Positions 10,995 through 59,744 of a DNA stretch of 64,000 bases are shown here, in pieces; within the stretch, counting starts at the first letter, position 1, and each line of letters opens with the position of its first letter. This stretch comes from Thermofilaceae archaeon. GTDB lineage: Archaea > Thermoproteota > Thermoprotei > Thermofilales > Thermofilaceae. The translations under genes were made by a program, and so were the position numbers. The notes below the pieces were generated by a model. The model ran no database searches. It saw only the letters and a program-made list of their open reading frames with translations, and was not told where the DNA came from. Location of the stretch: positions 416,001 to 480,000 of the forward strand of contig JAWCCZ010000001.1 of NCBI GenBank assembly GCA_038861545.1. Reading direction: 5' to 3'.

Positions 10995-12011
10995 TTAAGC
11001 CTGGAACGCTTTCAGCTTCAATGCATCACCGATGAAGAGTTCCTCCCACCTATGGCAAGCAACTAGATGAGACTTTGCCGCCTCGGCTAGTTCCGGTTCT
11101 TCTGTTCTGCATTTTTCCTTTGCGTACGGGCATCTAGGGTGGAAGCGGCAACCCGGAGGCGGGTTGATTGGACTTGCCACTTCTCCCTCGAGAGTTACTT
11201 TCACTCTGTTTCTCTTCTTGGGGTCTGGGAGTGGTACAGAGGAGAAGAGGGCCGCTGTGTAGGGGTGCAGAGGTGTAGCGAATAGCTCTTTTCGGGGAGC
11301 TACTTCAACGAGCTTACCCAAGTACATAACTCCTACGCAGTCGCTCATATACTCTACAACCAAAATGTTATGGGAGATGAACAAGTAGGTTAGCGAATAC
11401 TTTGATTGAAGCTCCTTGAGGAGCCTCAAGATTCTGGCCTGAACAGATACATCTAAGGATGACGTGGGCTCGTCTAGGATCAGGAATTTAGGACGCAAGG
11501 CTAAGGCTCTCGCAATAGCAACGCGTTGCCTTTGACCCCCGCTCAGCTCGTGCGGGTACCTATCTAAATACTCGGTTCCTAAGCCCACCTCGCCTAGGGC
11601 TTCCACAACCTTCTCTTTAACTTCCGAATCGTTTAGATTGAAGTGGAATTTTACTGGTTCACCGACGATTTCCCTTATCCGCATGCGTGGGTGTAACGAA
11701 GTGTAAGGATCTTGGAAAACTATCTGCATATGCCGCCTAAGCTCACGCAATTTTTCCCCGTTTAACGCGGTTACATCGATACTATCGAAGTGTATTCTGC
11801 CGTTGTCGGGCTCTACAAGGCGGAGAACAACTCTGGCTAAAGTGGACTTACCGCAGCCGGATTCGCCGACAAGGCCAAAGGTGCTTCCTTTCTCGATACT
11901 GAACGTCACTCCATCGACGGCTTTCAAGTAGCCAATTACTCTACGGAAGATGCCAGCTTTTACTGGATAATACTTTCGTAGCTGTTCAACTTTGACAAGC
12001 TCGTTCGGCAT
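10995..12011 (-). CDS. dppF: dipeptide/oligopeptide ABC transporter ATPase
   Basis: GESGCGKS Walker A, LSGGQRQR, DEPT, C-terminal GCRFHPRC domain. Confidence 0.95.
   Translation of the reverse strand: MPNELVKVEQLRKYYPVKAGIFRRVIGYLKAVDGVTFSIEKGSTFGLVGESGCGKSTLARVVLRLVEPDNGRIHFDSIDVTALNGEKLRELRRHMQIVFQDPYTSLHPRMRIREIVGEPVKFHFNLNDSEVKEKVVEALGEVGLGTEYLDRYPHELSGGQRQRVAIARALALRPKFLILDEPTSSLDVSVQARILRLLKELQSKYSLTYLFISHNILVVEYMSDCVGVMYLGKLVEVAPRKELFATPLHPYTAALFSSVPLPDPKKRNRVKVTLEGEVASPINPPPGCRFHPRCPYAKEKCRTEEPELAEAAKSHLVACHRWEELFIGDALKLKAFQA
11090..11165. repeat. 76-bp exact repeat, copy 1 (in dppF; copy 2 at 12078-12153)
   Basis: Direct base-by-base comparison of the two tracts. Confidence 0.95.
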
Positions 12012-12987
12012 GTAAGCTCACCTTCTCCGAACTGTACAGGTGGCAAACTACAACCCTGCCCGGCTTAACTTCAATGGGTTCCGGTTCTTCTGTTCTGCAT
12101 TTTTCCTTTGCGTACGGGCATCTAGGGTGGAAGCGGCAACCCGGAGGCGGGTTCTCCAGGTTGGGGGGTTCACCATCGATTCCTCGCAAGCTTTCCCCAG
12201 CTTTCGGTATGGCTGAAAGGAGCCCTTCACTGTAAGGGTGTAAAGGCTCTTCGAACACTTCATATACGTCTCCGATTTCAGCTATCTTTCCCGCGTACAT
12301 CACAACGAGCCTATCGCTTACTTCTGCCGCTACTCCCAAGTCATGGGTTATGAATAGCGCTGTGGTGTTAAACTGTTTAACCATCCTGTTAATTAATTCT
12401 AAAATTTGAGCTTGAACGCTAACATCTAACGCGGAAGTCGGCTCATCAGCTATTAGAAGCTTCGGCTTGAGGAGAAGCGCCATAGCTATCATCACGCGCT
12501 GGGCCATGCCTCCGCTCAGCTCGTGCGGGTACCTATCTAATAGGTTATCAGCATCCGGCAGGCCAACCTTGTTCAGCATCTCGATTACAGCCTTATATGC
12601 TTCATCCCCAGAAGCCCTGGTGTGAGCCTCTATAGCCTCCCTTAGCTGGAAACCTATCGTTAAAAGAGGGTTAAGCGCAGCTTTCGGCTCTTGGAAAATC
12701 ATTGCTATTTCCTTTCCTCTAATACTGCACATCTCCATTTCACTCAGCTTTAGAAGGTTCAGACCATTGTAGAAGACAGCGCCTTTGACTGTACACGTGT
12801 CGGAGGGGAGGAGCCGCATGACAGCTAGCGCGACTGTGCTTTTCCCTGAGCCCGTTTCTCCCACCAAGCTCACTATTTCGCCACTTTTCAACGAGAAAGA
12901 AACTCTCTCCAAGGCTCGTATAACGCCATTCCTAGATCGATAGTGGACAGTTAAAGAGTCTACCCTAAGCAGAACATCGTTTCTCAT
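11986..12987 (-). CDS. dppD: dipeptide/oligopeptide ABC transporter ATPase
   Basis: GETGSGKS, LSGGMAQR, DEPT; start at MRNDV overlapping the dppC stop. Confidence 0.95.
   Translation of the reverse strand: MRNDVLLRVDSLTVHYRSRNGVIRALERVSFSLKSGEIVSLVGETGSGKSTVALAVMRLLPSDTCTVKGAVFYNGLNLLKLSEMEMCSIRGKEIAMIFQEPKAALNPLLTIGFQLREAIEAHTRASGDEAYKAVIEMLNKVGLPDADNLLDRYPHELSGGMAQRVMIAMALLLKPKLLIADEPTSALDVSVQAQILELINRMVKQFNTTALFITHDLGVAAEVSDRLVVMYAGKIAEIGDVYEVFEEPLHPYSEGLLSAIPKAGESLRGIDGEPPNLENPPPGCRFHPRCPYAKEKCRTEEPEPIEVKPGRVVVCHLYSSEKVSLHAERACQS
12078..12153. repeat. 76-bp exact repeat, copy 2 (in dppD)
   Basis: Identical to 11090-11165. Confidence 0.95.
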
Positions 12988-44170: not shown

Positions 44171-47100
44171 GTGCCAAAGCCGCGCAGATTTCTGGAAGTA
44201 GTTTTAATTTCACTTATTGTGCTAAGCTTTTTCTTTATCCCTCAATACTTCAGAGAAAGGTGGTATGGACCTGTGGCACCAAGTTATACTCCTACTGTTG
44301 GCTTTTTCGAGATTAACGGTCAACCAGTGTTTATCTTTAGCGGGGAAATGCACTACTTTCGAATCCCCCGAGATCTATGGTACGATCGGCTTCTCAAAGC
44401 TAGGCGAGCTGGCTTAAATACTGTAGCCAGCTACATTGCATGGAACTGGCACGAACCAAGAGAAGGGCTCAAGCTATTCGGTGAGGAAAGTGTCGATGGT
44501 TTTTATGAATCTGATGCCTTTAGCAGGGACTTAGATAGCTATATCCAGACAGCATCTAGCTTGGGTCTTTACTTTATCGCTAGGCCTGGACCCTATATTT
44601 GTTCTGAATGGGATAGCGGCGGTCATCCAAACTGGCTTTACACGAAGAACCCGGTCTTAAGGTCTTTAGATCCCACCTACATGGCATATACAGAGGGTTG
44701 GTACAGTACAATTATTCCCCTTGTCGAGAAATACTCGGTAACGAAAGGTGGACCTGTTCTCATGGTGCAAGTAGAGAACGAATACTTTTGGGGCGATGCC
44801 AACTACATAGTAAAACTATACGAGGTGGCAAAAAGGTATACTGAGGATCTTCCCATAGTAACTAACGAGGATTGGCACGTTGAGAGTACTCCGGTTATCA
44901 ACACCATCGACGATTATCCCTCTCCTTGGGATATTGCTGGTTTCGACGGTAAGGTTCGAAGCTATGTGCGAACTCAACCTGGGATGCCGAAGATGCATAT
45001 GGAGCTTGAAGGAGGCTGGTTTTCAACCTTCGGTGCTCCGCTGCCCACGAATAGGGGGAGTTTTCCCGCCGCTTGGACTGAAACCCTTGTGAAGACTTCA
45101 ATTGGACTTGGCGTTAACGCAGTAAACATGTACATGTTTCACGGTGGGACTAATCCGGGATACTACACGGGCAAGTATATTACTACCACATATGATTACG
45201 AGGCGGCGATTAGCGAGTGGGGCTACCTACGTGACAGATATTACGCGTTAAAGCGTGTAGCGATGTTTACTCGAACGTTTAATGATCTCTTAGTTGCCAC
45301 GAAACCGGCTGAAGGGCTAGTACAGGTTTCAGAAAGCGGCATAGACATATTCCCAAGAGTTAGTGATGGAGGTGGAGCTTTAGCGGTACTCAGAAACCTC
45401 GGCGACCAACCCCGTTCCGTGCGGTTAAAGTACCACGACGAGGTTTACCCCTACACAGGCTCCATTCATATTCCCGCAAAAAACGCTAAGACGGTGATTT
45501 TGAACTACACTATTCCGGGAACGCCTTTCAAAATAACCTATACAGCATCAGAACCTTTATTGAAGCTGGTTAACGGTGCGAATGTGTTACTGGTAGTCTA
45601 TGGTGATCCGGGAGAAGTCGGAGGGCTGGCAGTAGAGGCTGAAAATCAGCTTTCAGTTGAGTACACCAGCGGCGTGAATGTCGAGCGGAGAGGGAAAGCC
45701 GCTATAGTAACCTGCACTCATGGCAGTTCTGACGGAGTAGTCGTTTTTAGCTCAAGTGGCTTTACTTTAACTATTATTGCAACCTCAAGGGAAAGAGCTG
45801 AGAGAACATGGTTAATAGATGAATTCAGCGAACCCTATCTGCTTATCTCTAATTTATACTTCGTTGGTACAGCTTCTAAAGCTGGGGGCAAGCTTCGGCT
45901 AGAGCTGGAGCTCGATGAGCGCAGCGCTGGCACGGTTCTTCTCTATAGCCCTCACCCACCGCAAAGCCTTATGATTGATGGGCATGAGGTACCCCTCTTC
46001 CAAGTTTACGGAAACTTGTACAGGTTTGAGGTTGAAGTACCGAGCCGCCATTCACCGTCAGTAGAGGAGAAAGGCTGGATAACAAGATTAGAGAAGGAGT
46101 ACAGGGCAGGTACCGCGGTTACGGCTGGAATGCCGCTGGAGTTTGCTGGTATCCTTGATAACGGTTATGTTACGTATTCTATTGAGTTCAGCGTTAGCGA
46201 AGAGGAGCTCTCAAAGGATTGCAGCCTCTACTTAAGCTATTTTAATGACTTTGCCACTGTTTTACTTAACGGTATACCTCTGGCGTCAGCTTACCACAGC
46301 ATAGAGGTGGACGTCTCGAGAGCGCTTAAACCCGGCTCTAACGAGCTGCGCGTAATCCTTGAATCAATTGGACACCCTAACGACGGGCAAGTCTATGTCC
46401 CGAATGGAATCGTGGGAGGCGTTTACTTGGGCAAGCTTCACGAGGAGGAGCTTAAAGGGTGGTTACGTATCGGTTTCTCAATTCCCTATGGTAAAGAATT
46501 CAGCCTTACACAGTTCCTATATAAACCGGAACTCCTTGAGAACATATTAAATGATCCGAACTTAGAGCAAAAAGCCGAAAAGGTAGATTTGATAGATGGA
46601 GGGGGATTATACGTTAAAAAGCTGCAAATTGAGAGAAAGGAAGGGCGCTATATCCTAGTATTTACTACACGAGCGTTGCTTTTCGTGAATAAGCACTATT
46701 TAGGTGTTTACTTAGGTCCAGTGGATTTGACAGAGTACTTGAAAGAGGGGGAGAACGAAATTGCTATCGCAGCTGAATGGTTACCCCGAGGTAATCCTCT
46801 GTTCAAAGTTTACAGCTTGAAGATAGAAGGCGAATGGAGAGTAGCTCCTGGCACAACGGGCTTAGCGGATGGATGGTACAAAGTAGGGCTTGATGAGAGT
46901 CTTTGGAGTGCCACTGATCCCCCACTTGAGGTAAGAGACTTCGAAGGTCGCATAATATGGCTTCGGTGCAGGTTTAGGATAGAGCCGGGGCAGGATGTAA
47001 GCGCGCCGTTGAAGTTGAAGGTTAACGCTCGAGGTGTTAGGATGCTTCTCTACTTTAACGGGCAGTTCCTTGGGAGATTCGTGAGTGAGGGTCCGCAAAC

Positions 47101-47254
47101 CGATTTTTACATTCCGGAGTCACTCGTTAAATCTGGCGATAACTTAGTGGCCATCATGATGCATGTCGTAAGCAGTTATGCTCGAATCGAGTTCATCGGT
47201 ATTGAACCGTACTACGTTCATCCAATATCGATGGTCGAGTTATCTCCCGGCTGA
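44171..47254 (+). CDS. GH35 beta-galactosidase-like glycosidase, membrane-anchored
   Basis: SGEMHYFR, WNWHEP, RPGPYIC.EW, QVENEY acid/base, ME..GGWF nucleophile, YMFHGGTN, TTYDY. Confidence 0.93.
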   Translation: MPKPRRFLEVVLISLIVLSFFFIPQYFRERWYGPVAPSYTPTVGFFEINGQPVFIFSGEMHYFRIPRDLWYDRLLKARRAGLNTVASYIAWNWHEPREGLKLFGEESVDGFYESDAFSRDLDSYIQTASSLGLYFIARPGPYICSEWDSGGHPNWLYTKNPVLRSLDPTYMAYTEGWYSTIIPLVEKYSVTKGGPVLMVQVENEYFWGDANYIVKLYEVAKRYTEDLPIVTNEDWHVESTPVINTIDDYPSPWDIAGFDGKVRSYVRTQPGMPKMHMELEGGWFSTFGAPLPTNRGSFPAAWTETLVKTSIGLGVNAVNMYMFHGGTNPGYYTGKYITTTYDYEAAISEWGYLRDRYYALKRVAMFTRTFNDLLVATKPAEGLVQVSESGIDIFPRVSDGGGALAVLRNLGDQPRSVRLKYHDEVYPYTGSIHIPAKNAKTVILNYTIPGTPFKITYTASEPLLKLVNGANVLLVVYGDPGEVGGLAVEAENQLSVEYTSGVNVERRGKAAIVTCTHGSSDGVVVFSSSGFTLTIIATSRERAERTWLIDEFSEPYLLISNLYFVGTASKAGGKLRLELELDERSAGTVLLYSPHPPQSLMIDGHEVPLFQVYGNLYRFEVEVPSRHSPSVEEKGWITRLEKEYRAGTAVTAGMPLEFAGILDNGYVTYSIEFSVSEEELSKDCSLYLSYFNDFATVLLNGIPLASAYHSIEVDVSRALKPGSNELRVILESIGHPNDGQVYVPNGIVGGVYLGKLHEEELKGWLRIGFSIPYGKEFSLTQFLYKPELLENILNDPNLEQKAEKVDLIDGGGLYVKKLQIERKEGRYILVFTTRALLFVNKHYLGVYLGPVDLTEYLKEGENEIAIAAEWLPRGNPLFKVYSLKIEGEWRVAPGTTGLADGWYKVGLDESLWSATDPPLEVRDFEGRIIWLRCRFRIEPGQDVSAPLKLKVNARGVRMLLYFNGQFLGRFVSEGPQTDFYIPESLVKSGDNLVAIMMHVVSSYARIEFIGIEPYYVHPISMVELSPG

Positions 47255-50192: not shown

Positions 50193-51524
50193 TTAGATCG
50201 GTTTAACATACCCCCATTTCTCGAGAGCTCTTGCTAGTTCCTTATGACTCTGAGCGTACTCGTCTAGAGGTATACTCTGCATCGCAGCGTCGATGGCTTG
50301 CCTGACAGCCATAGCCCCGGCCGTCGGGCCGTCTGGGTGTCCCACAACTCCACCACCGACTTGGACCACTATATCGGAGCCCATGACCCGGATCACCTCG
50401 GGCAGTGTGCCTGGGTGCAAACCGCCTGAAGCCACTGGGATCGCTGGTTTCAAGTGATAGAAAGGCTGTTCTAAGTGGAGCACATCCTCCGGCTCTGGTT
50501 CGTATATTTGATCCCTCAGTACTCGAGCGTTTCTGAGTACATCGATAGTTTTCGCTTCAAGTTTACCTACTTCAGGTGTCCCCACGTGTAGCTGATCGAC
50601 ACCGATTACCCGTAACAGCTTAGCAAGCACGAACATAGATATCCCGTGGTACTGGTTTCTAGTGAAAGCTGCATGCATAGCCCTGTGAGCGTGTATAGCT
50701 AAACCGTAATCCGCGGCTAGATCCCGCACAAAGGTAAGTGCGGACCAACCGGTTACCACCACGTCGACCATTACGTACGGATTACCGTAGTCGGCTACCA
50801 GCTTTAACCTGCGTTCCATTTCCCTAACATCCGCCGTAATGTTAGCAAACCACGCTTTCCTTTCACCAGTTTCATTTTCCGCCTTATCTATAGCTCTCAT
50901 TATCGCGTGAGTGCGTTCCTCGAATCGGCAGTACTTAGGTCCAGCTAAGTTTTCATCGTCTTTAACATAGTCAAGCCCCCCTATTAACAGAGCATAAGCT
51001 AGCTTTTCAACTTCATCGGGCGAATAGCCTACCTTCGGCTTTGGTACCGTACCTGCTAGCGGTCTATCCCTTACACCCATTATTTCTTGAACCCCCCATA
51101 AACCTCTGTGAGGTCCTTTAAAGTGTTCGAGAAACACTTTAGGAAAGTATATGTCCTCAAGCCTTAAGCCTTTAACCCTCCTCATTCCGAACACGTTACC
51201 AGCCACAGAGGCAAGGAAAGCCGGTATGTTGGTTTCCTCAAAAAGCTCGAGTGGGTATGCGACTCTAAGAGCGTAACTGCCGTCTCCGAGCGGTTGAATA
51301 AGGTAGGCTTTCCCCATTAACTTGTTTAAGCGGGCGGCATCGTACCAGGCGTAAAGGGTGGTCCACGTGCCCGTACTGCTCTCAGCCGCTACTCCACCTG
51401 CAGCGTCCTCTGCGGTGAACCCCTCGGCAGGTGTGAACCGAAAAGAGACTATTACGTCGGTTCGCGGATCGGGTTGATACCCTATTTTTACGAACTCGGG
51501 ATATGGTTCAAACTCAACTGGCAT
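50193..51524 (-). CDS. rbcL: ribulose-bisphosphate carboxylase, form III
   Basis: AAESSTGTW, KPKVG, DYVKDDEN, HRAMH, VGKLE loop 6, SGGLHPG all present; start at MPVEFE. Confidence 0.95.
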   Translation of the reverse strand: MPVEFEPYPEFVKIGYQPDPRTDVIVSFRFTPAEGFTAEDAAGGVAAESSTGTWTTLYAWYDAARLNKLMGKAYLIQPLGDGSYALRVAYPLELFEETNIPAFLASVAGNVFGMRRVKGLRLEDIYFPKVFLEHFKGPHRGLWGVQEIMGVRDRPLAGTVPKPKVGYSPDEVEKLAYALLIGGLDYVKDDENLAGPKYCRFEERTHAIMRAIDKAENETGERKAWFANITADVREMERRLKLVADYGNPYVMVDVVVTGWSALTFVRDLAADYGLAIHAHRAMHAAFTRNQYHGISMFVLAKLLRVIGVDQLHVGTPEVGKLEAKTIDVLRNARVLRDQIYEPEPEDVLHLEQPFYHLKPAIPVASGGLHPGTLPEVIRVMGSDIVVQVGGGVVGHPDGPTAGAMAVRQAIDAAMQSIPLDEYAQSHKELARALEKWGYVKPI

Positions 51525-51707
51525 CCAAATGCTATGCCGGGCAAATACTTTAGGATAGCGCTTAAACAACCAGCTACTCTCGCTTGCTGTGTATTTTACC
51601 GAGCAGCTCGGCACGCTTATACCCAGGCCCTTTATCCGTCAACGTAGGCTTAGCGTTCCTAAGAACGCGGAGTTGCTCAAAGGGGTGAGTCGCCTATGTT
51701 CTTCCCC

Positions 51708-53135
51708 TCATACCTGTGGGGGTTTACCTCCAACTTTACTCCAAAGCTTACTTAAGACCCTGTCAAGATCCTTCAGTTTATCTACTTCGAGGGTCAACGG
51801 TTCATGTTCTCTGAGTATTCTCTGAACTTCACAGTGAGCCCAATCCAATAGATCCCCAGTTTTCTTTCCGGTTATCGGCTCGGTATCCCACACATTTGGA
51901 ACGTGGATTTCTCTTCTGACAGCAGCTAGCGTGCTCCTGTGAGCCATAAAGTTACCCCGCTTTGCGAGCACAACTTCTCTGATCAAGTCTACATCTCCGG
52001 GTGAGATGGGGAAGCCCCTAGCTAAGCGTAAAGCAATCCCGCATATCTCGTTATCCAGTACAAGCTTCTCCATCGACTGAATACTCTCATAGCCAAGCAT
52101 TCCGGGACCTGAGACGATGTCGAAGCCTGCAAGCGCTGCAAGCGTGGCGGTGTAGGCCGCCTCAGCTCCAGCTTGGTAGTTGGCCGCCTTAGCATCGGCG
52201 AGCCCCATATACGTGTGACAAGGCAGTTGCACGTATTTAGCCATATCCCTGTAGGATAGGCTTACTAGCGTCGCTTCAGGGGCGGTGATCATTGGGGTTC
52301 CGAAACGCGGGTGTATCACGGTAGGAGAGCCCCCGTAAATTACCTTGGCCTTGGTCGATGCTAACTGGGCTATAACAACCGCGCTGAGGACTTCTGCGTG
52401 GTGCTGTGCAAGGGCCCCGTACACTGTAGCGGGGGCGTTAGCTCCAAGCCCAGGCATAGCTACTATTTCAGCTGGTGCACCTAACCGCGCTAGGTCGACT
52501 AAGTTCCTAGAAGTGATGGCGCTCCAGGATAAGGGAGGAGAAGGACATACATCAAATATAGCGAACGGTCTCTCACGATAGTCTGCGCGGACGGCAGCTA
52601 ACATTTCTACCATTAGGGGCAAGTTCTCGATTGTGAAAGCACCGGTTACTACGGGTTTTGAAGAGTATTTTAAAACCACATAAAGCCGCACGGCATCGCT
52701 TACCTCAACTGGGACGTCGCCCGGTACAAGGGCCGTGCTCTGTCCTCTGATGTACTCGAGCGCGTCTACCAGTTTAACGAAATTTCTTAGATCGCTAAGG
52801 GTAGGCATCCTAGGTTCAGTCGAACTATAGTCGAGGATCTTCACGGCAGCGGATCCAGGGTTAAACACTTTTGCCTCTTCACCCAGTCTCGCAGCTAGGC
52901 GCCCCTCTCTATCGTAAAGGGGAAAGCTTTTCGGCGTTTTTAAGAGTGCCTCTTTAACAAGTTCTTCACATACTAGGATTCTTCCACCTCTAGCTTCGCA
53001 TCCAGCCTCTAGCAGAATCTTCTCAACCGTTTTATCTTCAAAATAAATGCCTATTTCAGATAGAAGGTGAAGCGCTGCCGCATGTATTTGCTCAGTTTCC
53101 TCACCTGACAGGACCGTGAAGACGGGCTTCGGCAC
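51708..53135 (-). CDS. mttB: trimethylamine methyltransferase superfamily protein (MttB, non-pyrrolysine)
   Basis: IH.AA...L.E.G, SPPL, APATV.G...Q..AE.L, QAG.E, EKLV.DNE; no in-frame TAG. Confidence 0.88.
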   Translation of the reverse strand: MPKPVFTVLSGEETEQIHAAALHLLSEIGIYFEDKTVEKILLEAGCEARGGRILVCEELVKEALLKTPKSFPLYDREGRLAARLGEEAKVFNPGSAAVKILDYSSTEPRMPTLSDLRNFVKLVDALEYIRGQSTALVPGDVPVEVSDAVRLYVVLKYSSKPVVTGAFTIENLPLMVEMLAAVRADYRERPFAIFDVCPSPPLSWSAITSRNLVDLARLGAPAEIVAMPGLGANAPATVYGALAQHHAEVLSAVVIAQLASTKAKVIYGGSPTVIHPRFGTPMITAPEATLVSLSYRDMAKYVQLPCHTYMGLADAKAANYQAGAEAAYTATLAALAGFDIVSGPGMLGYESIQSMEKLVLDNEICGIALRLARGFPISPGDVDLIREVVLAKRGNFMAHRSTLAAVRREIHVPNVWDTEPITGKKTGDLLDWAHCEVQRILREHEPLTLEVDKLKDLDRVLSKLWSKVGGKPPQV

Positions 53136-53278: not shown

Positions 53279-56200
53279 TTAAGTGCTAGATGCTGCACGG
53301 TTGATGTATCTGGCTTTCTCCTCTCCAGCTAGTGATGTCCAGAGGAGTAGCTGTTTTCTAAGGTCGTCAAAGAAGTATGGCGTTGAGCTGTGCCAGGTAA
53401 TCCTAGAACCCCCGAGTAACTTAGCCGTTACGCCAATAATGTACTTCTTGCCTGGTTGTTCAATGATATGTATCGATACAGCTTGCTCAGTTCCGCTCTC
53501 CACTGGGGTTACCAGTACTTTTATCTTCAATTCTAAGCTTGAAGCATCTACACCCCCCGTCTCTATTACTCGAAAGCTGGGTTTGTAGGATCCGACTCCC
53601 TCATAATACTCTCGAAGGTACTCCAGCAAGCCTAAAGCCTCGCTCCTCGATGTAAGCCTAAGCGGGAAAACAATCTCCCATAAATCTCCACGCGGCTTCG
53701 TGGGAGGTTTCCAAACTCTTTCCAAAGATGGGGTTATAAGCTGCGAAGCCTTGAGTGCCGGATATAGGGCCGAAACTAAGCATACTGATACAACTGCTAT
53801 TAGAGCCAGTATCACCGCCGCGGATGCATAGTTAAACACATAGGTCTCCGGTAGAAGGCCTGTACATATGAAGTACCAAGAGAACGTCCAGCCCAGCACA
53901 TAACCAATAAACGCGCTGAGAAGCCCATAGACTAGGAACTCCACTATAAACATTAACGATGCACCGCGAGGAGAAAGTCCGACAGCGGAGAACACTAACA
54001 TTTCCCTTGATCTTTCATAAACAGCCGCTAGCAGCGTCACTACAATGCTTATTGATCCCAGCGCAAGGAGTGGGATTACGAATTCCCATCCGAAAAGCGC
54101 GTAACTGAAAACCCTGCTCACCGTTATAGAGGTACCGTTACTGTGGAGAGAAACTCCGGCGTCCAGTGCATAACACGCCTTACGTGCTAAGTCGATCATC
54201 ACATCAAAGGAGGAGTTTCCCATTATAACTCCAACACTGTTAACGAAACCTCCCAACTTCAGTGCAAGTAAGTCAGTAGCTATGAGCACCCGATCCCAAG
54301 CGAGGGTATTCAGGCTTATTTGGCCTCCCCCGATCGTAAAGCCGTAGAGCGTGGGCGAGTACGTTGGGTCAAGTGGTATGTACGAGTACCCATCTGGATC
54401 ACTGGGGAGCCTCTGCAGCTCCTCCTCGTTGAGGATTCCAACAACAGTTAGCTTAAACCCTGAGTATTCTACTTCGTCTCCCACAGTTACTCCGAGTAAT
54501 CGAGCCTGCTTAGTAGTTAACAGGCAGGCATACATCTGATAGGGGTGAAATACTGATCCGTTAACTACTGCGTGGGATAATATCCTATCGGCTTCAAGGA
54601 AGTTTAAACCTAACACGCCTTGAACTACAGCATAACCGTCTCTACCAACGATAAGCCCATAGGGCCCAAGTTTATTCACCGAGACCGGGTAAAGCCATAC
54701 CCTAGGTGTGGAAGCGGATCCGGCTAATCCCTTTAATGCTTCAACGGCCTCGATGCCGAGAACCTCGTGCAGCACTCCGGTTCCCCTCCTTACAACGAGC
54801 CCCTCGTAAGCAGCAGGTCGATGAACCGTTGACACTGATGTGAACACCGCAGGCGAGGTTGATGTTAATGAGACTACTGCTACTGCAACTGTGGTTATTG
54901 ATATAAGGGTTAAAACACTCCTTAAAGGCCTTTTCCGCATATTTTCCAAAGCGGTTGAGATCGACATAAGCGCTGCTGATGTTTCTTCTCCTTTGAACTC
55001 ATGGAAACCCAGCCTGGACGCGGCGAAACTCCTTAAAACATGTGACGTTTCGCTCGAGAATACGGCAAGCACAAGCAATGCGATCATAAGCAGAGAAGTT
55101 CCCAGTACAGACATAGCAGAGTTGGCAAGCACCGTCATCGCTGGGTGTACGAGAGTGAAGACTAGTAGCGCTGTAACACCAACTCCAGTTACCGCCAAGA
55201 TTCTTTTCAATCCTTCGCTATGAACTAGAAGCCTCTCAAGAAGGTATGCTGAAGGCAGCACTATGAACAACATCAACACAGCGGTTCTTGCGGTTTCGTC
55301 GTAAAGGGGCATAACCTCCTCAGCGTAGTACCTTGCTGAGAAGGATAGGGCTAAAAGCGAGTACCTATAAGTCTCTGAGTACTTACGCTCCCTGATCGCG
55401 TTGAGGGCTGCCGAGATGTACCAACTAGCGTTTTTCTCGTAGACCTCAGCGCTTAGCCTCCGTACGCCCCTCGACTTTAGCTGAAAATACCTGTAGTGAG
55501 CGACCCGAAAAGTATCGATCGAGTATGCTAGTGCAGGTGTAGTAATCAATGTAAAACCCGGTTTAACCTGTACCCCTAGTCCCTCGGGGTCATTTTCTGT
55601 AGAGTTAGTTAAAAGTATTAGAGGTCTCAGCTCAAGAGATGGGTTCTCCGGTTTAGCGGCAATGACGATCCTGGAACCTATAGGAGCCGCTACCATAGCT
55701 ACATCGTGCTGAGGAATTAAATAACTGCTCCAATGCATTGGCTCGGCTTTAGTCAATGTATCATACACTTTCACTTCTCCGCCTAAGTTGTACCATACCC
55801 TAACTCCTCCCATTCTAGGATCATCCATCGCTCCTGTTCTGAAAAGCCTTGGTGAAACGATGTCGAAGAGCACGACTATCCCCCCTTTAAACACAGGCAC
55901 GAATACCGGCATAGGATCCTGCAGCGCTCCGACAATGAGCGCTGCCGGCGAGACGCCGTACACACCTTGATCAACCACATACACTGAGTCCCCCTCAACC
56001 TTTATGGCCTCAATCAGCCAGTAGTTCACACCCTGCGGGGATAATCCCACAATCTCCGCTATGCCGTCAGACCTTGTTTTCTTTAAAGTGCAAGCAAAGG
56101 GGTACGTATGCGGGTAGCTCCAAGCTCTGATAACCACGTCCGATACAGGGGTGTACCAGCCTGCGCTGAGGTTGAAGGAAGCCACGCTGATTTTAAACGA

Positions 56201-57721
56201 TACTAGGCCCCAGAGAAGGACACCCGCTGTGCCACCACCGACACCCGTAAATCGGCTGGGCATCGAGCTAGAGCGGCTTAATCCAACCTCTTCTACTGTT
56301 AGCATTTGAAGTATGAGCGCTGCAGCTTGGTACAGCTGGGGGACTATGTAGCTCCATCTAAGCGAGCTGGTGCCGGGTACACCTTCCCAGTTCCGAAAGC
56401 TGAATTGTGTTCTAACGGTGAAACCAATCATGTTAGCAACAACGAAGGGCTCAGTATCCAACAAGTATGGGGTGGCCATAGTGCCTGTCCAACTCCAATC
56501 TGGCCCATCCACTAAATCGACGTCTCTGATGAGCCCCAGTTCCCTGTAAACGCTGATGAGGTTCTCCGGTAATAGTTTTCTTTGGCTCAGGTAAGTGAAT
56601 ATGAAGTCGCTAAGCTGCCTACTAACTAGTTCCTGAACCCGGCTGTACTTAGCCGTGAAGAGAGCTCTTCCTGCGCGATAGAAGTGACCCATGTAGACGA
56701 GCGAAACGCCTGGGAAGTCATCCGAGAAGTCTACACCCACAACATACCATACCACGTTTCTCCCCGAGATCAGATCCGGGTCTAAGGCAAAGCTGTCTGC
56801 CATATGTCTCGCTCCCACTAATCCTTGCCAGTGACCTGAGAGGAAGGCGATCCACAGCGATCGCTCGAAGCGAGTTTGCGCCGCGATTCTCGCTAACTCG
56901 AGCAGGAAGCCAACATTAAGTGCGTCGTGAACACTCCGAGCTAAGGCGGGGACAACCGACCAGGAGTCAATGCTTGCGACAACGAGCACGGCCTCGTCCT
57001 GCTTTCTGCCGGGTACCTTAACCAACAGGTTACTGGCTTCAACTATTTCAAGCGAAATCTGTGAATCAATTACAGCAGTGTAACCTCTCAAAGCACACTC
57101 AATTAATCTCTCAGCATTTTCCCCCTCTACGTACAACCTGACAAACGGGTAGAAAGCATACCATTCAAACTTAGAGTATGCTTCATATCTATCTGCTTCA
57201 CTTGCTCCAATAAATACAACTGCCTTAGCACCGAATTTCGCAGCGTATCTCCAGTTATCCCCGCTGCAGAAGTCCATCACTATAATTGCCCCTTCCACCT
57301 CTCTTCCATCGAAATCTTCCAACCTACCTTCACCAACGTAAACCAGCTTTCCTGTCAAATTACTGTAGTCCCAAGTCCCCACGTGTCCATTCGGCCAAAC
57401 TGCATACGCTTTGAGTTCTATTCCCATTTCCGGAATCCTAATCAGACTTCTCCTATCCATAGGTACTAAAAGGGTAAAATTCTGGAACTCCGGATTTAGC
57501 CCTAGGCTGTTGAGCTGGCTGGCAATATAATCAATAGATGCATAATAACCCTCATAGCCCGTAACCCTAGATCCTAGCTGAGAGAGCACATAAGCGTGCT
57601 CCATAACGGCTTCAGTGCTTAACTGGTCAAGCAGTTGCTCAAGGGTTTTCGGAGCTGGTTGAGCTAGTGTAACCGCACTGAATGCTAGCAACGTGAGGCT
57701 AACTATAGCGTAAAGCCTCAT
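53279..57721 (-). CDS. large membrane protein: PA/M28-like extracellular domain fused to FtsX/MacB-type permease
   Basis: Signal peptide, SRVTGY.G, PA-domain G.LVYVG.G, M28-like DSW..VP, NMRKRPLRS.LT MacB start, ER.RE.....AVGL.P FtsX motif, YPA.KAS. Confidence 0.85.
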   Translation of the reverse strand: MRLYAIVSLTLLAFSAVTLAQPAPKTLEQLLDQLSTEAVMEHAYVLSQLGSRVTGYEGYYASIDYIASQLNSLGLNPEFQNFTLLVPMDRRSLIRIPEMGIELKAYAVWPNGHVGTWDYSNLTGKLVYVGEGRLEDFDGREVEGAIIVMDFCSGDNWRYAAKFGAKAVVFIGASEADRYEAYSKFEWYAFYPFVRLYVEGENAERLIECALRGYTAVIDSQISLEIVEASNLLVKVPGRKQDEAVLVVASIDSWSVVPALARSVHDALNVGFLLELARIAAQTRFERSLWIAFLSGHWQGLVGARHMADSFALDPDLISGRNVVWYVVGVDFSDDFPGVSLVYMGHFYRAGRALFTAKYSRVQELVSRQLSDFIFTYLSQRKLLPENLISVYRELGLIRDVDLVDGPDWSWTGTMATPYLLDTEPFVVANMIGFTVRTQFSFRNWEGVPGTSSLRWSYIVPQLYQAAALILQMLTVEEVGLSRSSSMPSRFTGVGGGTAGVLLWGLVSFKISVASFNLSAGWYTPVSDVVIRAWSYPHTYPFACTLKKTRSDGIAEIVGLSPQGVNYWLIEAIKVEGDSVYVVDQGVYGVSPAALIVGALQDPMPVFVPVFKGGIVVLFDIVSPRLFRTGAMDDPRMGGVRVWYNLGGEVKVYDTLTKAEPMHWSSYLIPQHDVAMVAAPIGSRIVIAAKPENPSLELRPLILLTNSTENDPEGLGVQVKPGFTLITTPALAYSIDTFRVAHYRYFQLKSRGVRRLSAEVYEKNASWYISAALNAIRERKYSETYRYSLLALSFSARYYAEEVMPLYDETARTAVLMLFIVLPSAYLLERLLVHSEGLKRILAVTGVGVTALLVFTLVHPAMTVLANSAMSVLGTSLLMIALLVLAVFSSETSHVLRSFAASRLGFHEFKGEETSAALMSISTALENMRKRPLRSVLTLISITTVAVAVVSLTSTSPAVFTSVSTVHRPAAYEGLVVRRGTGVLHEVLGIEAVEALKGLAGSASTPRVWLYPVSVNKLGPYGLIVGRDGYAVVQGVLGLNFLEADRILSHAVVNGSVFHPYQMYACLLTTKQARLLGVTVGDEVEYSGFKLTVVGILNEEELQRLPSDPDGYSYIPLDPTYSPTLYGFTIGGGQISLNTLAWDRVLIATDLLALKLGGFVNSVGVIMGNSSFDVMIDLARKACYALDAGVSLHSNGTSITVSRVFSYALFGWEFVIPLLALGSISIVVTLLAAVYERSREMLVFSAVGLSPRGASLMFIVEFLVYGLLSAFIGYVLGWTFSWYFICTGLLPETYVFNYASAAVILALIAVVSVCLVSALYPALKASQLITPSLERVWKPPTKPRGDLWEIVFPLRLTSRSEALGLLEYLREYYEGVGSYKPSFRVIETGGVDASSLELKIKVLVTPVESGTEQAVSIHIIEQPGKKYIIGVTAKLLGGSRITWHSSTPYFFDDLRKQLLLWTSLAGEEKARYINRAASST

Positions 57722-57727
57722 TTTATT

Positions 57728-59656
57728 TCACCACGGCCAAAGCCAAGCGGATTTAACAAGCATCAAGCTCACGACGGCTATTGTAGCGGCTAATCCCTCT
57801 CCTAGTAGCACACCAGCCACGGTCACGCTTCTAGCTTTCTCCCATCGTTCTTTAAGGAAACGGCGTAGGACGAATCTGCTTACAGCGGATCCAGCGAATA
57901 AGGGGATCGCGTACGTCGGTGGAGTGGTTATACCTAACATTAAGCCAGCCGATGAAATACCCAGTTTCAAGACTTTTGTAGCTAACTCAATTACGGCAGC
58001 TAAACCAACTGTGCCTATAGCCGATAAAACCAGCAGTTGGGGCGAGATGCGAAGCGCCCTAGTCACCAGTAGTGAGTCGATCATAGCGGACGCCGGCATT
58101 GAAATAATTGTGTTAGGGTATGCGCTGCTCGGTATCGGAGCAATCCTCCAGAAGAAGTCGAGGGATAGAAGGTTTATCATTAATCCTAAGGTGTACGCGA
58201 ACATCCAAACTTTTATTACATCGACCGGCTTAGTGCGGGTCAGTAACGCTACTTTCATCGCCTGCGCACCTCCACCTGCAGCCCCACCAGCAATAACCGG
58301 CGGGTATACAAATGAGGCGTAAGCCTCCTTAGGGGTTAATCCCCCAGTTGGCGTTAGGTAGACGATTGTATGCCATAGGTACGGAGGTGACGAGAAAGAA
58401 GCTCCGCTTTCACCGACTATCGCTGCCGAAATCAACCCCAAGAGAAAACTCATGCCAAGCGACGTCAGCAGCGCAACTATAAGAGGGAAGTTCGGTAAAA
58501 GGTAATGGAATACCGCTACGGATGAGAGCGTTGAGGATAGGAAGCAAGCAAATGCCAGCCGAAGTGGGGGAAATATGCTGTTGTCCTTGGATCCTATCAA
58601 TGAACGGCTTAGAGCCCTAGCCGTTATGGAAAGAGCTTTTCGGTACTTTAGAATCGTTAGTACCGCGAACCCTAACGCAGCCCCGATCTGTATGGGGAGC
58701 CAAACCCTGACTTGAGATCGCTGCAGGACTCTAACTAGGTCCATCCCTCCATAATATTCAGAAACCCATTCCGGGAATAGTTGCCTCAATACAGGGTTTG
58801 TCAAAATTAGCGAGTTTCCAAAGACCCATATGGCGAGCGATATAGCTAGGCTTACTGAGGCAATGCCGAACGGTACTATCATACCAGCTGCCCAGGGCAT
58901 AAGGCTAGTCGCTAAACCCAAAACAGCCCCGGGCAAGATGGAAGAGGTAAGTCTCGTTAAATCGATAAGAGGGAGGGGGATCAACGGGAAGCCGAAGCCT
59001 GAACCAAGGTAGAGGATCGAGCCGTAGGAAAGCCCAACGTACAGGCCAGGAGCTAAGAAGCTAATAGTTTCCCTGAACTTTTCACCGCTCGATACCGCTT
59101 CTACAATGGAAGCATCTACTTGAGCGTAAGGAAAGGGGAGTTTCTGGATTTCGACGAACACATGTGCAGCGATTATGGCTAATGAGAGCTCGGCCAGCAT
59201 AGCCAAGGCTGTGGCAATTGTCCAAGTCACCAAAGGCTTCGCTAAGTCTAAATGGAAGAACGTCCTAAGCCTGTAAGCTGTTGAAGAGAGAGGTGGAGCG
59301 AGCCAGTCTGGCACTACCTCGGGTAGTGGAATGCCCATCAGGCTATAGGATTGAGAAATTGGGCTCTGCATGAAGTACATCCTATAAACAATAAGGTAGT
59401 AGGCGGTTGTCGAGATTCCGGAGACAGATCCGACGCCAACATACAGGACAAAAACCTCCTGGGGCTTTATGTCCGAACCCAGAAGCCTCATAACGTATGC
59501 GAAAAGAACTAGGAGAGCATAAGTTCCAACTAGGCCCAGCGAAACACCCGCGATTAAATTCAAGTAGGTGCTAGCAGGGATAAAAACTAGCGCTGCGATG
59601 ACAACAAAGAGCGCGGTTCTCCATGTGAAACCGCTTTCTAACTCACTTGAGGCCAT
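57728..59656 (-). CDS. OPT-superfamily-like oligopeptide transporter
   Basis: GFTWR N-terminus, LPFP.A, PIPS..YP, GV..GEG C-terminal motif, many TM helices; start at MASSEL. Confidence 0.75.
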   Translation of the reverse strand: MASSELESGFTWRTALFVVIAALVFIPASTYLNLIAGVSLGLVGTYALLVLFAYVMRLLGSDIKPQEVFVLYVGVGSVSGISTTAYYLIVYRMYFMQSPISQSYSLMGIPLPEVVPDWLAPPLSSTAYRLRTFFHLDLAKPLVTWTIATALAMLAELSLAIIAAHVFVEIQKLPFPYAQVDASIVEAVSSGEKFRETISFLAPGLYVGLSYGSILYLGSGFGFPLIPLPLIDLTRLTSSILPGAVLGLATSLMPWAAGMIVPFGIASVSLAISLAIWVFGNSLILTNPVLRQLFPEWVSEYYGGMDLVRVLQRSQVRVWLPIQIGAALGFAVLTILKYRKALSITARALSRSLIGSKDNSIFPPLRLAFACFLSSTLSSVAVFHYLLPNFPLIVALLTSLGMSFLLGLISAAIVGESGASFSSPPYLWHTIVYLTPTGGLTPKEAYASFVYPPVIAGGAAGGGAQAMKVALLTRTKPVDVIKVWMFAYTLGLMINLLSLDFFWRIAPIPSSAYPNTIISMPASAMIDSLLVTRALRISPQLLVLSAIGTVGLAAVIELATKVLKLGISSAGLMLGITTPPTYAIPLFAGSAVSRFVLRRFLKERWEKARSVTVAGVLLGEGLAATIAVVSLMLVKSAWLWPW

Positions 59657-59744
59657 CACTATTATTGTTGGCGAGGTAGGTAAAAACTTCTGCGCACAGG
59701 CTAACGGGAAATTCAAATATAAGGTTGTTAGGCATTTTTCCTAA

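Follow-up and report, generated by a model that had tools for sequence, protein, structure and literature searches.

How is an FtsX-type permease energised when no ATPase gene lies beside it, and why should it be encoded next to a carrier-type transporter? Both questions are raised by two co-oriented genes on the minus strand of a 64,000-nucleotide stretch of a Thermofilaceae archaeon genome (GenBank assembly GCA_038861545.1, contig JAWCCZ010000001.1, positions 416,001 to 480,000; hereafter the window). The two open reading frames (ORFs), 57728..59716 and 53279..57721, are separated by 6 bases, as an earlier note made from the sequence had described them; the first encodes an OPT-like membrane protein and the second a 1480-amino acid (aa) fusion protein, here called the giant. 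That note proposed an ATPase-less uptake or sensing machine. We favour, at a probability of roughly 0.55, a receptor and mechanotransducer, akin to the type VII systems among ATP-binding cassette (ABC) transporters, that would work with an OPT-fold permease, be driven by a shared motor encoded in trans, and probably serve nutrient uptake. The module is most likely not motorless: it would dock onto an energising unit that its copies share and that is encoded at another place in the genome.

57728..59656, minus strand: predicted OPT-superfamily permease gene, 642 aa from the ATG at 59656; the ORF is open back to a TTG at 59716 (662 aa)
53279..57721, minus strand: gene of the giant PA/M28-like plus MacB/FtsX fusion, 1480 aa, starting 6 bp past the OPT-like stop

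The giant and the OPT-like protein are encoded as a conserved pair

A BLAST search of all ORFs of the 1.63-Mb Thermofilaceae genome with both proteins recovered six giants (1480-1540 aa, 26-37% identical) and six OPT-like proteins (629-662 aa), each giant being encoded directly next to one of the latter. Two pairs have the OPT-like gene upstream of the giant, three have it downstream and one pair is divergent; the six copies together occupy about 38 kb, or about 2.4% of the genome. Beyond this genome, 14 of 16 archaeal loci and each of the seven bacterial loci inspected (Latescibacterota, Gemmatimonadota and Planctomycetota) likewise had an OPT-like gene next to the giant; in the bacterial loci the usual operon order was giant, DUF6785-like, OPT-like. 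Six of the bacterial loci were intact and one (L091) was fragmented. Lastly, a giant is naturally fused to DUF6785 and DUF6784 in P0051 (2120 aa, 14 member sequences), which supports a physical association of the giant with an OPT-fold partner.

The two proteins could in principle work independently and be neighbours through incidental synteny, as synteny in close relatives also extends to the surrounding HAD, LysE, MttB and RuBisCO genes. Six independent paralogous pairs in differing orientations, the retention of the pair across archaea and bacteria, and the P0051 fusion make this explanation extremely improbable, and the 26-37% identity among the paralogous pairs excludes a recent segmental duplication. 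Judged by gene order and sequence, the two genes are a conserved functional pair. The pairing of the giant with an OPT carrier suggested in the earlier note, and the linkage expected of homologues, appear sound.

At the fragmented locus of one Latescibacterota chromosome (L091:9773-18266), all three genes (giant, OPT-like and DUF6785-like) are broken up into multiple ORFs, either because the module as a whole is decaying or because a long-read assembly introduced frameshift errors.

The giant combines a peptidase-fold head with a MacB/FtsX-type permease

The giant was modelled with AlphaFold2 (AF2) in two parts, residues 1-800 (predicted local distance difference test score (pLDDT) 91, predicted template modelling score (pTM) 0.90) and residues 790-1480 (pLDDT 80). 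Pfam matches, these models and Foldseek searches agreed with the earlier description of a 1480-aa protein with a signal peptide, a PA plus M28-like domain, a further extracellular region and a MacB/FtsX permease. In the features below, TM denotes a transmembrane helix and PCD the periplasmic core domain.

57662..57721, minus strand: signal peptide (about residues 1-20), a hydrophobic helix at 2-19 in the model, then TLA-QP
56282..57649, minus strand: ectodomain of PA plus M28-like fold (about residues 25-480), its metal site remodelled; from PDB profile search, Foldseek and column counts
55547..56224, minus strand: extracellular beta-sandwich (about residues 500-725); the AF2 model is all-beta here, with pLDDT mostly >90
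55007..55537, minus strand: helical hairpin plus an additional bundle of three membrane helices (about residues 729-905), from the models and hydropathy segments 810-893
54086..54934, minus strand: MacB-type TM1 and PCD (about residues 930-1212), from a sub-threshold Pfam MacB_PCD match and Foldseek matches to isolated MacB, LolE and YknZ periplasmic domains
53720..54085, minus strand: FtsX TM2-TM4 with coupling helix (about residues 1213-1334), from Pfam FtsX at 51 bits and the AF2 model
53282..53719, minus strand: family-specific cytoplasmic tail (residues 1335-1480, 146 aa), beta-alpha-beta4-alpha2, model pLDDT about 90

Pfam FtsX (PF02687) matched residues 1218-1326 (51 bits, cut-off 25.5) and MacB_PCD matched residues 938-1121 at 22.9 bits, under its 27-bit cut-off. 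When the model of residues 790-1480 was searched with Foldseek, it matched LolE (E 7e-11), MacB (1.5e-10), LolC, YtrF, HrtB and YbbP, as well as the isolated periplasmic domains 3ftj and 5f9q. The coupling helix lies between TM2 and TM3 (residues 449-458 of that model) and its motif, E-R-x-R-E ... G-L-x-P, is conserved, with E1236 and R1237 nearly invariant and G1248, L1249 and P1251 invariant. The giant thus shows the FtsX domain, the TM1-PCD-TM2-4 fold and the coupling helix of a MacB/FtsX permease by Pfam, AF2 and Foldseek; what it lacks of a type VII ABC system is an ATPase encoded with or fused to the permease. As read earlier, no ABC ATPase gene flanks the pair, and the nearest ABC_tran matches are about 41 kb off, at window 11460-12912.

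According to the AF2 models, the hairpin and three extra TM helices return the chain to the cytoplasm ahead of MacB TM1. The beta-sandwich and PCD were the least conserved parts among paralogues (22-28% identity). The cytoplasmic tail was among the most conserved parts of the giant family and has many invariant residues. This tail domain was found in at least 558 representative clusters (50% identity), where it nearly always ends a protein of about 1500 aa, and an Atlas search with it gave no usable match and no named relative.

The M28-like head has a remodelled metal site

Pfam Peptidase_M28 matched the giant at residues 231-309, covering only the first 78 of 193 model positions. A profile search of the ectodomain against the PDB gave 2ek8 (E 3.7e-27), with nicalin also listed, and the best PDB matches of the 1-800 model in Foldseek were the PA-domain M28 aminopeptidases 2ek8 (E 6.5e-22), PaAP and BSAP, followed by GCPII and the transferrin receptor (TfR). 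We aligned 43 family members and mapped the M28 zinc ligands through a HMMER alignment to 2ek8, with the following result for each column.

First His: S250 in the giant; H in 23, Y in 11 and S in 7 of the 43
Asp of the H-x-D motif: D252; invariant in 43
Bridging Asp: D266; variable in the family
General-base Glu: H297; H in 40/43
Ligand Glu: W298; W or F in 37/43
Fourth ligand (Asp): D331; D in 41/43
Last His: T423; S, T or A in 37/43 and H in 1/43 (lost in 42/43)

The Glu-Glu pair was replaced by H-[W/F] in at least 37 of the 43 members. The head therefore retains the alpha/beta fold of M28 with its PA insert, and does not keep the co-catalytic zinc ligand set or the general-base Glu. The loss of zinc ligands inferred earlier from the motifs A-S-I-D and SGHWQG is thus family-wide, and the comparison with the M28 aminopeptidase 2ek8 found the canonical set missing and a constellation of D252, H297 and D331 retained. 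On the aligned sequences, the canonical M28 co-catalytic site is absent throughout the giant family. It is plausible that the peptidase fold, non-catalytic by canonical M28 criteria, acts as a tethered receptor, as the earlier note had it. Since D252 is invariant and H297 and D331 are nearly so, the site has been remodelled rather than eroded, and a conserved ligand or a single-metal site is possible.

One bacterial family member, P0063 (2358 aa), carries an extra N-terminal LysM region ahead of the M28 head, which hints at binding of glycan or peptidoglycan fragments in that lineage.

A candidate motor is encoded in trans

The genome encodes 13 FtsX domains, 11 of them in large orphan proteins and only two with an adjacent ATPase. 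One of these two is a 238-aa mini-FtsX without a PCD (C3:19994-20710), followed by a 242-aa ATPase (C3:20764-21492) in a locus that includes genes for an OB-fold RPA-like protein, AspRS, dCTP deaminase and GGGP synthase. A second ATPase (C5:60848-61594), 71% identical to the first, lies beside ABCE1/RLI, THUMP and CGI-121 genes. Both ATPases are of LolD/MacB type with intact Walker A, LSGGQ and Walker B-Glu. The other FtsX plus ATPase pair (C2:60617-62509) was rejected as a motor: its permease is a canonical 390-aa MacB-like protein with a PCD, in an operon with CARDB and DUF58, and its ATPase is only 50% identical to the C3 ATPase.

We examined co-occurrence with three queries against the same 301 genomes of the phylum. 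Residues 900-1480 of the giant (the chassis; E<=1e-10) identified 70 carriers and 231 non-carriers. A full-length mini-FtsX (E<=1e-28, ORF about 155-270 aa) was found in 65 genomes, comprising 64/70 chassis carriers and 1/231 non-carriers (G079), and ATPase orthologues (E<=1e-94, at least 61% identity) were found in 68/70 carriers and 2/231 non-carriers (G079 and G240); because related genomes are not independent, these counts are a pattern and not a statistic. Both searches were separated from ordinary MacB by a score gap, the next class being 420-aa permeases at <=85 bits for mini-FtsX and matches at <=281 bits for the ATPase. The six carriers without a full-length mini-FtsX orthologue were G005, G157 and G178 (70-85% complete), G046 and G198 (each with a divergent mini-FtsX), and G101; those without an ATPase orthologue were G157 and G249. 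Within the Thermofilaceae, genera g1 and g3 have both chassis and motor and g2 has neither (0/6), and within the Desulfurococcaceae both occur in g45 only.

Two g45 genomes, G046 and G198, which putatively belong to Staphylothermus, hold all parts in one 20-kb locus in the order GH57, mini-FtsX, ATPase A1, ATPase A2, GH57, OPT-like, DUF6785, giant. When A1 and A2 were compared with the C3 and C5 ATPases, they proved to be reciprocal best matches. In three bacterial carrier genomes, one mini-FtsX plus ATPase pair apiece is located among unrelated genes, the ATPase being 63% identical to its archaeal counterpart. In the genomes that were checked closely (the window genome, G046 and G198, and the three bacterial carriers), we found one mini-FtsX per genome as against multi-copy giants.

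The alternative is a system with no ATPase at all, in which the FtsX base is a scaffold or passive coupler, the dead-peptidase head binds substrate, the OPT protein imports it by the proton gradient and the tail replaces the nucleotide-binding domain. Such a system would fit the lack of an ATPase within 41 kb of the window pair and within 10 kb in the seven bacterial loci, as well as the conserved, family-specific tail that follows TM4. Known OPTs, moreover, are secondary carriers that act alone as proton symporters. These points are set against the near one-to-one phyletic coupling to the mini-FtsX plus ATPase pair, its presence in 3/3 bacterial carriers tested, its physical linkage to the module in the two putative Staphylothermus genomes, and the conserved coupling-helix motif. 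Near one-to-one co-occurrence, the linked locus, the coupling helix and a dedicated mini-FtsX with its ATPases mean that the ATPase-less description in the earlier note is not supported, and we regard such a system as improbable. Homologues are linked to a LolD/MacB-type ATPase, which the note had named as grounds for giving up that description, in their phyletic distribution and not by adjacency in most genomes.

Two observations touch on the same families. The motor ATPases of L092 and L094, metagenome-assembled genomes of Planctomycetota and Gemmatimonadota, are 94.5% identical, a sign of either recent transfer or mis-binning. In the window genome, five more orphan FtsX proteins (714-1090 aa; C1:255369-257513, C1:389820-393092, C1:412737-415562, C4:120563-123589 and C1 near 137000) share the MacB part of the chassis, with no M28 head and no adjacent ATPase or OPT-like gene; these may use the same motor.

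A proposed mechanism and its direction

In the reading we favour, the giant would be a type VII ABC (MacB/LolC-like) permease subunit that holds a non-catalytic PA/M28-fold receptor head outside the cell, and the OPT-fold protein would be its translocation partner and supply the path. The energising unit, common to all copies, would consist of the mini-FtsX (C3:19994-20710) and the two ATPases (C3:20764-21492 and C5:60848-61594). ATP binding and hydrolysis would shift the stalk and ectodomains of the giant by mechanotransmission, such that a captured extracellular oligomer, either peptide or glycan, would be passed on and imported through the OPT-fold permease. In this scheme the heterodimer with the mini-FtsX, the need for ATP, the direction of transport and the substrate are all inferred. 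Import is favoured because the paralogues are many and divergent, because their outer domains are the most variable, and because the putative Staphylothermus locus has a GH57 context.

A serious rival to import is an outward-acting envelope system, in which the motor-driven giant extracts, presents or remodels a lipid, a lipid-linked glycan or an S-layer-associated protein and the OPT-fold protein is an exporter or flippase. Nicalin and nicastrin, which are non-catalytic M28/PA folds, serve membrane-protein machines, and the giant has fold matches to LolC/E, HrtB and YbbP. Every type VII ABC system characterised so far has its substrates in the envelope, and there is no importer among them (PMC12646458, PMC8333309). 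An envelope role fits less well with six divergent paralogues in a small genome whose ectodomains vary most, a pattern that suggests substrate diversification more than housekeeping. Nor does it readily account for a putative Staphylothermus locus lying among GH57 glycoside hydrolase genes, or for the failure to find the family in many sampled relatives with similar envelopes, for instance in 0/6 genomes of sister genus g2. Taken together, we consider an outward role unlikely, while keeping it as a serious challenge to uptake.

Several findings weigh against a shared motor and an uptake role. The motor genes are unlinked to the modules in most genomes, so that the link is co-occurrence among related, non-independent genomes. 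G101, which is 96% complete, has giants and ATPases, and a mini-FtsX was not found there with this query. The chassis family includes giants of about 945-1090 aa without an M28 domain, and co-occurrence is not specific to the M28 giants; as the chassis query also detects these non-M28 orphan giants, the motor tracks the whole orphan-chassis family. A DUF6785 partner, kept by four other copies and by the orthologous loci of the sister genus, is not present in the window copy. Finally, the neighbouring genes (MttB-like, RuBisCO III, HAD and LysE), which were searched for a clue to the substrate, gave none.

A more specific version of the importer is also conceivable, and we put it forward tentatively, as somewhat short of an even chance. 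This would be a hybrid of primary and secondary transport in which one ATP-driven type VII ABC motor (the mini-FtsX and two ATPases) serves many interchangeable cassettes of receptor giant and OPT-fold protein, with oligomeric nutrients loaded into a carrier-type permease by extracellular mechanotransmission.

The OPT-like protein and a second OPT-fold partner

Pfam OPT (PF03169) matched residues 168-647 of the smaller protein against model positions 111-619 of 623, at 35 bits with a cut-off of 25.8. This profile picked up only the window copy among the six OPT-like paralogues, and a profile of the OPT-like family gave no match at E<=1 among PDB sequences. One orthologue is named OPT/YSL family transporter by NCBI and the Atlas neighbours are OPT-annotated clusters. 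On these profile and neighbour matches the protein is a distant member of the OPT superfamily, consistent with its earlier description as a multi-TM OPT-like protein of about 640 aa; its ATG at 59656, which gives 642 aa, is the start used by orthologues.

DUF6785 plus DUF6784 (PF20581/PF20580) is a second OPT-fold partner of the module. The four DUF6785 genes of the genome adjoin modules 3 to 6; the window module and the paralogue closest to it, on contig 7, have none. In the sister genus, orthologous loci have the order OPT, giant, DUF6785 (700 aa), a 335-aa ORF and MttB. In the window, L001 and L004 the giant is followed directly by MttB, and the window copy is therefore a two-gene version of the module. 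The DUF6785 gene by module 3 (C1:247503-249521, outside the window) is interrupted by an in-frame TGA, which leaves an ORF for the C-terminal 490 aa only; the gene may have become a pseudogene, or the TGA may be an error of sequencing. The 335-aa protein that follows DUF6785 in the sister genus has no Pfam matches and is absent from the window.

Comparison with known systems

The giant resembles the type VII ABC systems MacAB-TolC, LolCDE, FtsEX-EnvC, YbbAP-TesA, HrtBA and YtrEF in its FtsX domain, four-TM MacB topology, PCD between TM1 and TM2, and coupling helix, with Foldseek E values of about 1e-10 and LolD/MacB-type ATPases as its candidate partners. It departs from them at both ends: 900 residues comprising the PA/M28 head, the beta-sandwich and the three extra TM helices are added at the N-terminus, and the conserved cytoplasmic tail of 146 aa at the C-terminus. 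Its ATPase is not encoded with it, it would probably form a heterodimer with a mini-FtsX that has no periplasmic domain, and the module is multi-copy with one motor and has an obligate OPT-fold neighbour. To our knowledge, no characterised type VII ABC system has an OPT-fold permease as a neighbour.

Like OPT/YSL transporters (PF03169), the smaller protein matches the Pfam model above its gathering score over nearly the whole model and has about 640 aa with many TM helices; unlike them, it is very distant (35 bits), lacks a sequence match to solved structures and is always paired with an FtsX giant. The head shares the PA plus M28 fold with TfR, nicastrin and nicalin and with 2ek8, BSAP/YwaD, PaAP and GCPII, and has lost the zinc site as have TfR and nicalin. 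It differs from these in a site that is remodelled and not eroded and in its covalent fusion to an ABC-type permease.

Group II energy-coupling factor (ECF) transporters, in which one EcfAA'T module is common to many S components, offer a possible analogy: substrate-specific membrane components would be scattered and one energising module encoded elsewhere, here among housekeeping genes. There is no homology between the two, the fold here being type VII ABC and not ECF, and the sharing of a motor is inferred in our case from genomics only.

Significance

Searches of open-access PMC and bioRxiv literature on DUF6785, on FtsX with M28 and OPT, and on type VII ABC with OPT found no description of the module, for which present annotations offer no more than 'FtsX-like permease' or 'hypothetical'. 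The MacB/FtsX systems characterised to date work outward on the envelope; their conserved pairing with OPT, in many copies, would define a new transport architecture with a fused non-catalytic receptor and an in-trans motor. Should the hybrid importer prove correct, MacB/FtsX proteins would gain their first role in import and the OPT fold its first accessory machinery, in archaea and bacteria alike. Carriers include uncultured Thermoproteota, Latescibacterota, Gemmatimonadota and Planctomycetota, and the module may explain polymer acquisition by many uncultured heterotrophs. The fully linked locus lies in genomes putatively of the cultured Staphylothermus marinus F1 and S. hellenicus P8, which makes biochemical tests feasible.

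Promoter and neighbouring genes

A TATA-like box precedes the OPT-like gene and is the probable promoter of a two-gene operon whose leader would be short or absent.

59681..59686, minus strand: TATA-like box TTTTTA, 24 nucleotides 5' of the OPT-like ATG, read from the sequence

The pair is flanked by genes for an MttB-like methyltransferase, type III RuBisCO, a HAD hydrolase, LysE and PmbA/TldD. The MttB-like gene downstream was considered as a substrate clue and dropped: it probably has its own TATA-like boxes, and the sister genus has two genes between the giant and MttB. It encodes a non-canonical MttB-superfamily methyltransferase (window 50193-53135, minus strand) directly upstream of type III RuBisCO, an order that is the same in L001, L003, L004 and L039. 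In the sister genus, a B12-binding radical SAM gene lies between the HAD and OPT-like genes (L002:6558-8030, with equivalents in L003 and L039) and is absent from the window. A 1027-aa ORF at window 44171-47254 (plus strand) is kept in L001 and L004.

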